64,000 nucleotides of DNA from an uncultured Acidobacteriota bacterium (GTDB lineage: Bacteria > Acidobacteriota > JAQAZP01), in assembly GCA_963836075.1 (NCBI GenBank), contig CAWIIB010000009.1, positions 3,330,442 to 3,394,441 of the forward strand, read 5' to 3'. The position numbers and the translations under genes are program-made. Every line of letters starts with the position of its first letter. Within the stretch, counting starts at the first letter, position 1. The notes beneath the pieces are model-generated. The model searched no databases, had not been told where the DNA came from, and saw nothing but the letters and a program-made list of their open reading frames with translations. Of the stretch, positions 29,944 to 31,191 are shown piece by piece.

Positions 29944-31191
29944 ATGGGGGAGAGGACAGTGGCGGATCTCTACTTCGAGATTGAGCATGGCGGGAATCAT
30001 GATTCCACAATTCGCGCGCCCCGGGAGTCCCGCCTGCCGGATTTCATTGGTGCGCCGGATGGCGCCGGGAAGAAGCTCGGTGGGCTGCGGGTGGTCATTG
30101 CCGGATGTGGCAGCGTGGGGCAGGCCGTTGCCATTCACTGCGCCCGGTTGCAGGTGCGTGAAATCAGTCTGGTGGACAGCAAGCCGCTGAAGTCCTCGAG
30201 CATGCTGACCCACGGCTGGGCTTTCCCCGAGGACCTCGGGCAGCCCAAAGCAACGGTTATCGGACGCCTGGTGAAGCAGATCTCCCCGGGCACCCGGGTC
30301 CGGGTGTATGACGGCCGGGTCGGTGAACTGGGTCTCCGTGCATTCGCATCCGCCGACCTGGCCGTGCTCTGCACCGACAACCTGCTGGCCGAAGTGGAGG
30401 TGGGCCGCTGTTGCCGGTTGCTGGGTGTCCCGGTTTTTCAGGGTTCTCTACATGGGGCCAGCATGACTGTGCAGGTTCGGGCCTGGAGCAATACGGCGGA
30501 CGGGCCGTGCCCGGCCTGCAGCTATACCTCGGCCGAATTCGAAGCGCTGAACAGCGAGACCGAATTCAGCTGCGAGGGGGGATTCGGGGGCCGGGGAGCG
30601 CCGCGGATCAGCGGTCCGGTGACGGCCAGCACCTCCTTTCTCTGTGCGCTCAGTGCGGATATGACCATGGTGCAGCTGGTTCGCCACTGGTTGGGACTGG
30701 GCCTGCCGGTTCTCGATTCGATCCTGGAATGGAACGGCTTCACCCACCGCAGTACCGTCAACCCGCTGCAGCGGAAAGCCGGCTGCGGGGGAGAGCACAC
30801 GGTGTGCCGCCGTGTGCCGTCAAACCACGCCATCGGTGAATCATCAATCCGTCAACTGCTCATCGCCGGCGGGGCTGCAACAAAAAAGAACCACGCCGGC
30901 ATGTCCCTTCAGCTGGACGACCTTCTGTTCTGTGAGCGGGCATCGTGCGGTTGTCCGCCGTCACAGCAGTCCGGGAGGTTTTACAGCTGCGGTGCGGGAG
31001 GGGGCCGGGCTGGCGAGGTCTGCAGCACCTGCGGGCAGAAGCCCGTGCCGAGCCCTTTTCATTGTTACGAGATGGTTCCCCTGGCTGAGCTGAAGGCGTG
31101 CATGGATCAGCCGCTTTCAGAGCTGGGGGCGGGAAACGCCGGCTGGGCCAGGCTCCGTGATCCGGAAGGGAGTGTGTTGATCGGTATCTGA
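29944..31191 (+). CDS. E1-like protein (ThiF/MoeB/UBA superfamily), divergent
   Basis: Rossmann-type loop ...LRVVIAGCGSVGQAVA...LVDSK...; several CxxC pairs (GPCPAC, CSTCG). Confidence 0.55.
   Translation: MGERTVADLYFEIEHGGNHDSTIRAPRESRLPDFIGAPDGAGKKLGGLRVVIAGCGSVGQAVAIHCARLQVREISLVDSKPLKSSSMLTHGWAFPEDLGQPKATVIGRLVKQISPGTRVRVYDGRVGELGLRAFASADLAVLCTDNLLAEVEVGRCCRLLGVPVFQGSLHGASMTVQVRAWSNTADGPCPACSYTSAEFEALNSETEFSCEGGFGGRGAPRISGPVTASTSFLCALSADMTMVQLVRHWLGLGLPVLDSILEWNGFTHRSTVNPLQRKAGCGGEHTVCRRVPSNHAIGESSIRQLLIAGGAATKKNHAGMSLQLDDLLFCERASCGCPPSQQSGRFYSCGAGGGRAGEVCSTCGQKPVPSPFHCYEMVPLAELKACMDQPLSELGAGNAGWARLRDPEGSVLIGI

Follow-up and report, generated by a model that had tools for sequence, protein, structure and literature searches.

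A conserved bacterial cassette with two ThiF/E1-family proteins, candidate activating enzymes of two ubiquitin-like conjugation modules

Background

Why should a single bacterial operon encode two proteins of the activating enzyme (E1) family? The question is raised by a locus in a 64,000-nucleotide stretch of DNA (positions 3,330,442 to 3,394,441 of contig CAWIIB010000009.1, assembly GCA_963836075.1, from an uncultured Acidobacteriota bacterium), referred to below as the window and numbered from its first letter. To our knowledge, every characterised bacterial ubiquitination-like system (CBASS Cap2, Bil and Bub) uses a single E1 and a single ubiquitin-like protein (Ubl). The initial annotation of the window had described two E1-like paralogs in one operon, one of them with a degenerate nucleotide motif, and had offered two explanations, namely an active/inactive heterodimer comparable to SAE1/UBA2 of eukaryotes, or two E1s dedicated to two Ubl candidates. 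Our analysis favours the latter: sequence comparisons and gene context make it fairly probable that the locus unites two distinct, co-inherited ubiquitin-like conjugation modules (A and B), in which the two proteins, here termed E1a and E1b, act as activating enzymes, each for the Ubl of its own module. Bacterial ubiquitination-like systems are a fast-moving field, and the locus offers a compact system for asking how two Ubl pathways interconnect and whether E1 adenylation works without the canonical active-site arginine.

Results and discussion

Two ThiF-family proteins encoded in one operon

Both E1-like open reading frames (ORFs) are on the plus strand and match the Pfam ThiF family (PF00899). 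E1a (29944-31191, 415 aa) does so with an e-value of 5.4e-24 over residues 41-272 (85 bits against a cut-off of 28.1 bits), and E1b (38345-39175, 276 aa) with an e-value of 6e-16 over residues 19-144. In the database version of E1a (P0001, 410 aa) the start is placed at Val6 (window position 29959), which makes the protein 5 codons shorter than the ORF. The proposal that the two genes belong to one operon holds, as eleven plus-strand ORFs follow one another between 29291 and 39175 with spacings of -23 to +90 nt, forming a tightly packed same-strand unit. Both proteins belong to the ThiF/E1 family; a direct BLASTP comparison of E1a with E1b gave E = 0.29, and they are hence not close paralogues.

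The variant nucleotide-binding site of E1a

Alignment of E1a to ThiF and MoeB of Escherichia coli bore out the statement that it keeps the Gly-rich loop (AGCGSVG, residues 53-59) and has a degenerate nucleotide motif. In the latter region, represented by LVDSKPLKSSSM at residues 76-87, the variant motif LVD....K.(E/S)S.LT(H/Q) stands where DxDxxxxSNLxRQ is canonical. E1a retains G54, G56 and G59 of the Gly-rich loop along with Asp78, Lys102 and Asp145 (MoeB D62, K86 and D130), and has Ser85, Ser86, Thr89 and His90 at the positions of MoeB S69, N70, R73 and Q74, an arrangement that does not amount to the canonical set of ATP-phosphate contacts. The extra CxxC pairs that had been ascribed to E1a are real only in part: the CPAC at 189-192 corresponds to the first of the two canonical Zn pairs found in MoeB and ThiF, the second of which is replaced in E1a by Cys281 and His285, and the sole additional pairs are the C-terminal CxC (335-337) and CxxC (CSTC, 360-363), which are conserved in 20-21 of 22 homologues.

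A word-indexed search with E1a recovered only the protein itself and two relatives at 40-43% identity. Pattern scans of genome and metagenome contigs yielded 27 loci, and three look-ups of the genomic contexts of E1b homologues added six more. The conservation of E1a was assessed on 22 distinct sequences from these, which are 27-46% identical to the window protein. Within this set G56, G59, the ribose-binding D78, K102 and the Mg-binding D145 are invariant (22/22 each) and G54 is present in 21. The same invariance was observed for the residues of the Zn site (C189, C192, C281 and H285, 22/22 each) and for a cysteine in the crossover-loop region, C210 (22/22). At the positions that differ from the canonical motif, T89 is Thr in all 22 sequences, so that the canonical Arg is replaced throughout; position 86 is Ser in 19 and Gly in 3; position 90 is His in 15, Gln in 6 and Thr in one; and position 85, Ser in the window protein, is Glu in 16/22. 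K83, which is without a canonical counterpart, is Lys in 21 sequences and Arg in the remaining one. An N-terminal Arg (R30) is found in 19/22, the clade formed by the sequences from loci L004, L010 and L025 being without it in the alignments.

Because Thr89 and other pocket residues are invariant in the 22 homologues, the variant pocket, as judged from these sequences, is fixed and rewired under purifying selection, and not a product of decay. The E1a family has thus replaced the canonical active-site Arg in every examined homologue while retaining the putative catalytic Cys, and Lys83 may be a substitute for the missing Arg. We presume that E1a would adenylate its Ubl despite the rewired pocket. 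Alternatively, E1a could be an adenylation pseudo-enzyme that binds nucleotide or the Ubl of module A as a scaffold, a thioester relay or a sensor of ATP/AMP, with all activation left to E1b and no stable complex between the two proteins. The absence of the phosphate-binding triad from 22/22 members, together with the prevalent Glu at the S69 position, is in line with such a role. We nevertheless regard it as improbable, given that such divergent sequences all share Cys210, the Zn site, Asp145 and Lys102, that the basic residue conserved at position 83 could compensate for the Arg, and that module A contains no other candidate activator beside its conjugating enzyme (E2).

The canonical site of E1b and its solitary relatives

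The canonical ThiF-type motifs that had been attributed to E1b were found, in the form of GLGGVG, DGDxFExSNxxR, NKA and DNHATR. In an alignment of the window protein with 132 relatives (133 sequences) these ATP-site motifs are nearly invariant, and Cys200, which falls in the crossover-loop region, is present in 133/133. Only about 25 residues precede the Gly-rich loop, and there is no conserved N-terminal Arg among them. Lys22, three residues ahead of the Gly-rich loop, is invariant in all 133 sequences.

Distant relatives of E1b are found next to a JAB-domain gene in plasmids of Bacillales, and these JAB-ThiF pairs have a single E1. An example is plasmid pSP10-266k of Sporosarcina psychrophila (locus L035, NZ_CP146247.1, 255265-265777), in which a gene for a 345-aa JAB-domain protein is followed by one for a 302-aa ThiF protein that shares 27% identity with E1b (E = 4e-9) with Cys200 aligned. 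No second E1 occurs within 5 kb of this pair, which adjoins dnaX, holB-like and 5'-3' exonuclease genes. Distant relatives of the JAB protein of the window (g10, see below) are likewise found on plasmids of Bacillus, Burkholderia, Cupriavidus and cyanobacteria.

Components of the two putative modules

The whole cassette comprises 12 genes, namely the eleven of the operon and a divergent gene for a protein with a weak helix-turn-helix (HTH) region. Its features are as follows, with E3 denoting a ubiquitin-type ligase and DUB a deubiquitinating peptidase.

g00, 27343-28611, minus strand: 422 aa, weak N-terminal Cro/C1-type HTH (Pfam HTH_26, E = 0.0015, below cut-off)
Divergent intergenic region, 28612-29290, no strand: low GC, sigma-70-like sites on both strands
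g01, 29291-29932, plus strand: 213 aa, N-terminal domain and predicted C-terminal C4HC3 binuclear zinc finger (RING-like); candidate E3
g02 (E1a), 29944-31191, plus strand: 415 aa, ThiF/E1 family; variant nucleotide motif, C3H Zn site, crossover-loop Cys210, 125-aa Cys-rich C-terminal extension
g03, 31268-31945, plus strand: 225 aa, UBC-fold E2; HPN motif (FHPNI, residues 133-137), Cys147 at the catalytic position
g04, 31950-32765, plus strand: 271 aa, conserved protein, no family match
g05 (Ubl-A candidate), 32779-33081, plus strand: about 100 aa, conserved C-terminus P(K/R)xHLG
g06, 33172-34362, plus strand: 396 aa, JAMM-like signature E222...H293xH295...S324xxD327 broken by a Cys-rich insertion; candidate second DUB
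g07, 34340-36127, plus strand: 595 aa, AAA+ ATPase of the Mpa/ARC (proteasomal ATPase) type, OB-like region
g08 (Ubl-B candidate), 36171-36509 (ORF opens at 36105), plus strand: conserved R(Q/R)AGEKG and a variable tail of 0-20 residues
g09, 36503-37453, plus strand: 316 aa, unannotated family with putative E2/RWD-like core; Cys142 and Cys179 invariant, Cys164 near-invariant
g10, 37440-38348, plus strand: 302 aa, JAB/MPN+ metallopeptidase, intact JAMM motif
g11 (E1b), 38345-39175, plus strand: 276 aa, minimal ThiF/E1; canonical ATP site, invariant Cys200, without Zn site or conserved N-terminal Arg

Besides the two E1s, the domain or fold could be identified in g03, g07 and g10. The g03 protein belongs to the UBC/E2 superfamily, as it combines the UBC fold with a Cys in the catalytic position after an HPN-type flap; in hhalign comparisons with four human E2s the region from the HPN motif to the Cys was in register at a non-significant E = 0.6. 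The g07 protein matches Pfam AAA (4.8e-14), with a weak match to Prot_ATP_ID_OB_C, and its best PDB match is Mpa of Mycobacterium tuberculosis (5kwa, 1.7e-16). It also aligns with TIGR03689 (pup_AAA) over residues 62-559 with an e-value of 8.4e-25, at 87.4 bits against a cut-off of 504.75, so that it is not an equivalog of that family. The g10 protein matches Pfam Prok-JAB above cut-off (5.9e-8, 33 bits against 25) and NCBIfam PRTRC_A below it (4.2e-12), and the residues of its JAMM motif (E...HxHx7Sx2D; E94, H151, H153, S161 and D164) are present in 13/13 homologues.

The g03, g04, g05, g06, g08 and g09 proteins recovered nothing meaningful in Pfam (E <= 10), PADLOC or NCBIfam, or when family profiles were run against PDB sequences. 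In g01, eight residues (C145, C148, C161, C164, H169, C183, C190 and C193) are invariant in 23/23 homologues and form a C4HC3 pattern, an arrangement that has been reported for prokaryotic RINGs (PMC11354881). Its score against Pfam Prok-RING_1 is 25.4 bits, below the cut-off of 29.1, and other homologues score weaker. An FHA-like domain was considered for its N-terminal part from the sequence pattern and was dropped, as Pfam gave it no support. In g06 the signature residues E222, H293, H295, S324 and D327 are all invariant (13/13), with a spacer of about 28 aa in place of the usual 7; g06 has no Pfam match, and hhalign against the g10 family aligned the HxH at a non-significant E = 0.33. In a short metagenome contig (L024:3698-4219) g06 is apparently absent between g05 and g07, which may be a natural variant of the cassette. 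The g09 protein gave no significant hhalign match to E2s. The g04 protein is present in every locus with sequence at its position, and has no match in Pfam, PDB, PADLOC or NCBIfam.

The two small proteins, g05 and g08, are candidate Ubls by virtue of their C-termini. A terminal or near-terminal Gly is found in 15/16 homologues of g05, three of the 16 having 2-4 extra residues. The GxKG of g08 is present in 13/13 homologues and takes the form AGEKG in 12 of these, and the protein stops exactly at that Gly in 5/13; a conserved Gly followed by a variable tail is the pattern expected of Ubls that are matured by a peptidase. Pfam, PDB and hhalign searches gave no support for the presumed β-grasp fold of either protein, and g08 had no significant hhalign match to ThiS or MoaD.

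The cassette thus appears to hold two sets of an E1, a Ubl candidate, an E2-type protein and a JAMM-type peptidase. Module A appears to consist of the RING-like g01, E1a, the E2 g03, g04, Ubl-A (g05) and the JAMM-like g06, and module B of the AAA ATPase g07, Ubl-B (g08), the E2/RWD-like g09, the JAMM peptidase g10 and E1b. Because g05 and g08, like E1a and E1b, are unrelated by BLASTP, the modules were brought together and did not arise by duplication. This anatomy, with two sets of components, unrelated pairs of E1s and Ubl candidates, and solitary relatives of E1b, fits the suggestion of two E1s dedicated to two Ubl candidates.

The gene content also bears on whether these are ordinary enzymes of sulfur-carrier biosynthesis, in which ThiF/MoeB-like proteins activate ThiS/MoaD-like carriers for thiamine or molybdopterin. 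ThiF and MoeB are indeed the best named sequence matches of the E1s. The NCBIfam scores, however, all lie far below the equivalog cut-offs (for example 54.9 against 275 bits for ThiF), no gene for ThiG, ThiH, MoaE or a rhodanese occurs within the cassette, and the cassette instead encodes a UBC-fold E2 along with a RING-like protein, an intact and a candidate JAMM peptidase, and an AAA+ ATPase. On account of this gene context we reject such a role, which is very unlikely indeed.

Conserved synteny and the case for a heteromeric E1

Searches of fetched loci with the window proteins (tblastn) showed that the content and order of the operon (11 genes) are identical in each of the 13 distinct loci that were long enough to judge, namely the window and L002, L004, L005, L007, L008, L010, L015, L016, L020, L025, L030 and L032. 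The records carrying the cassette are labelled Planctomycetota/Gemmataceae, Verrucomicrobiota and Deltaproteobacteria, among others. The L002 copy, from a metagenome-assembled genome labelled Bifidobacteriaceae, has an in-frame stop at codon 214 of E1a (L002:9926-11179) and a frame break in g09 (L002:16692-17752); it is either a decaying cassette or an assembly error, and its taxonomic label looks doubtful.

The pairwise-identity matrices of all 11 genes correlate with each other (r 0.60-0.95), and therefore the cassette has diverged as a unit. Between cassettes the mean pairwise identity is highest for E1b (62%), with 51% each for g09 and g08, and lowest for the RING-like g01 (33%), g04 (35%) and E1a (42%). 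The genes of module B are uniformly more conserved than those of module A, which is the expectation if module A faces diversifying targets.

Several observations weigh against the assignment of each E1 to a Ubl of its own. Proteins of the E1a family were seen solely inside this cassette and never without E1b, the two co-occurring in 13/13 complete loci. E1a is without three canonical phosphate-binding residues (the equivalents of MoeB S69, N70 and R73), and a Glu at the S69 position, as in most family members, and the lack of the Arg also mark the inactive adenylation domains of SAE1 and APPBP1. Furthermore, an N-terminal Arg in E1a and none conserved in E1b is the complementarity expected of a heteromeric E1. 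Lastly, no significant statistical support was obtained for a Ubl fold in g05 or g08, for a JAMM fold in g06 or for a RING fold in g01.

A split heteromeric E1 would account for the co-occurrence of the two proteins, for a degenerate subunit that has nonetheless kept its N-terminal Arg, and for a partner with a canonical site but no such Arg. It would be a pseudo-symmetric E1a:E1b heterodimer in which E1b provides the sole competent adenylation site, and E1a supplies an Arg finger in trans (Arg30), the thioester Cys210 and a C-terminal extension for E2 docking, following the logic of eukaryotic E1s except that the Cys and the UFD-like part would be located on the 'inactive' subunit. Eukaryotic E1s have both the catalytic Cys and the C-terminal domain that recruits the E2 on the active subunit, and neither of them on the inactive one. 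The cassette resembles SAE1/UBA2 and APPBP1/UBA3 in that two ThiF-fold proteins are co-encoded, of which only one has a canonical SNLxRQ motif; in the other this motif is degenerate, with the Gly-rich loop and the N-terminal Arg retained. It differs from them in that the degenerate E1a is the one with the Cys, a Zn site, the Mg-binding Asp and the 125-aa C-terminal extension, with E1b being a short protein, and in that E1a and E1b are not detectably related beyond the family level and lie each within its own module. Because the degenerate subunit carries the Cys and the extension, the analogy to SAE1/UBA2 drawn initially is not supported.

Against a split E1 in general, E1b has an invariant Cys of its own, and its module supplies a separate Ubl candidate, E2-like protein and JAB protein; its distant relatives adjoin a JAB gene, and a second E1 is absent from the surrounding 5 kb. 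The Gly-rich loop, Asp78, Lys102 and the Mg-binding Asp145 of E1a, which a dead site should lose, are invariant, and the Arg30 required as the finger is missing from the alignments of the L004, L010 and L025 clade. The two proteins have also evolved at very different rates, as seen in their mean identities given above, and there are two Ubl candidates and not one. We accordingly consider a split E1 unlikely, and retain one E1 for each Ubl as the preferred reading.

A proposed sequence of reactions for the two modules

The assignment of each E1 to a Ubl is inferred, as are the functions of E3, DUB and unfoldase outlined here, the proteins that would be targeted and the biological role. In module A, E1a would adenylate Ubl-A at its C-terminal HLG, load it onto the crossover-loop Cys210 and hand it to Cys147 of g03, whereupon the RING-like g01 could direct Ubl-A to targets, and g06 could clip off the short extensions at the C-terminus or undo the conjugation. 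Ubl-B of module B would first be processed by the JAMM peptidase g10, so that its C-terminal AGEKG is exposed, and E1b would activate it by means of its canonical ATP site and Cys200, before passing it to g09; the Mpa-like g07 may act as an unfoldase on tagged proteins.

The two modules could, by analogy, also be joined in a two-tier cascade. In such a scheme module B would act on a component of module A, activating it by modification just as NEDD8 activates cullin-RING ligases, and with a reversal like that by CSN5, after which the E1-E2-RING set of module A would tag targets with Ubl-A for unfolding by the Mpa-like ATPase. E1a would then either have evolved a new way of adenylating without the Arg or need E1b in trans. 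This scheme is quite speculative and we hold its chances to be slim; if true, bacteria would possess, in one self-contained cassette, the logic of 'ubiquitin plus NEDD8 plus proteasomal ATPase'.

Relationship to known systems

A catalogue of prokaryotic RING operons was reportedly compiled by Burroughs, Iyer and Aravind in 2011. Our search of the literature, which did not extend to that catalogue, found no description of a two-E1, two-Ubl cassette. The cassette combines a structurally eukaryote-like E2 and a RING-like E3 candidate with a second, unrelated set of E1, putative E2-like protein, Ubl candidate and JAMM peptidase, a putative proteasome-type unfoldase and a candidate regulator, and most of its proteins are without a Pfam family or a defence-system model.

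Operons of the E1-E2-RING-Ub-JAB type occur in Caldiarchaeum subterraneum (PMC3082918, PMC5654768) and in some bacteria (PMC4197634). Module A is similar to these in its parts, as it unites in one operon a minimal E1, an E2 of the UBC fold that has the HPN motif and the Cys, a small RING-like protein of the C4HC3 pattern, a candidate Ubl whose C-terminal Gly is exposed, and a candidate JAMM-type peptidase. It is distinguished from them by its g03, g05 and g06, which match no Pfam family, by the sub-threshold score of g01 against Prok-RING_1, by the Thr that replaces the canonical Arg in E1a, by the additional conserved g04, and by always being joined to an Mpa-like ATPase and a further set of E1, candidate Ubl, E2-like and JAB proteins. 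A system of E1, E2, RING and JAB proteins linked to vWA-MoxR/FtsH has also been described (PMC7159879), and its architecture differs from that of the cassette.

The closest counterparts of module B are the class 6d operons of Iyer et al. 2006, or PRTRC cassettes, which contain a Ubl, a JAB protein, an E1-like and an E2-like protein (PMC1779556). In module B, too, JAB and ThiF genes are adjacent and follow those for a small candidate Ubl and a putative E2-like protein, the family-specific NCBIfam matches of g10 and g11 are PRTRC_A and PRTRC_ThiF, and the plasmid hosts of the distant g10 relatives broadly correspond to the groups in the class 6d table (PMC1779556). In contrast to the PRTRC cassettes, the scores are far below the cut-offs (46 against 101.8 bits for PRTRC_A and 29.1 against 144.75 bits for PRTRC_ThiF), g09 belongs to an unannotated family, and scans with NCBIfam TIGR03734-03742 found no ParB and no PRTRC B, C, D, E or F among the cassette proteins. 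On this comparison, module B is best described as a remote relative of the PRTRC/class 6d operons.

The defence systems Bil, Bub and CBASS Cap2 are bacterial operons encoding E1, E2, Ubl and JAB proteins (PMC10557695, PMC11601596), and the cassette encodes these components or candidates for them. The known Bil, Bub and CBASS systems have one E1 (PMC11601596, PMC10557695). The PADLOC matches were confined to the E1 domains and the ATPase, with none for g01, g03-g06, g09 or g10; those of the E1 domains were weak, the best being 51 bits to one Cap2 (E1-E2) model and that to BilD 21.6 bits, and they do not identify the cassette as a Bil, Bub or CBASS type II system. The g07 protein is similar to Mpa/ARC, the ATPase of the Pup-proteasome system, aligning to Mpa over most of its length; unlike the Pup pathway, the cassette has no gene matching Pup, PafA, Dop or the 20S proteasome in the Pfam or NCBIfam scans.

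Distribution, flanks and neighbouring genes

The cassette is no isolated case, as database searches yielded 756 clusters of g09 at 90% identity, 249 representative clusters of g03 at 50% identity and at least 1,456 E1b-like clusters. No PLSDB plasmid matched g09 or E1b at 1e-5, and g09 had no match in IMG/VR; these searches thus gave no evidence for carriage of the cassette on plasmids or phages. The flanks differ by locus, with an integrase adjoining the cassette in L007, glycosidases in L010, and in the window a sigma-54 two-component pair and ABC-F genes. The patchy taxonomic occurrence of the cassette, together with flanks that vary and a candidate regulator at its side, hints, with low confidence, at a mobile defence or stress island.

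That candidate regulator is g00, whose homologues of about 400 aa occupy the same divergent upstream position in six loci (L006, L007, L008, L015, L016 and L030). The intergenic region between g00 and g01 coincides with a dip in GC content, which is 0.535 in 28001-30000 and about 0.65 elsewhere in this GC-rich window. It contains sigma-70-like hexamer pairs at 28945-28972 on the plus strand and 28902-28873 on the minus strand, which are matches to the consensus only.

Within the operon, a 1090-aa antisense ORF (34196-37468, minus strand) and many long overlapping ORFs cover g07-g10; they are typical artefacts of high-GC DNA and were not counted as genes. Upstream of the cassette, genes for a sigma-54-dependent response regulator and a histidine kinase (22951-25943, minus strand) are not conserved beside it in other loci. 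Downstream, an arginine-deiminase/DDAH-like gene (39295-40059) and two tandem genes for ABC-F ATPases of 636 and 561 aa (40056-43679, minus strand) are apparently unrelated to the cassette.

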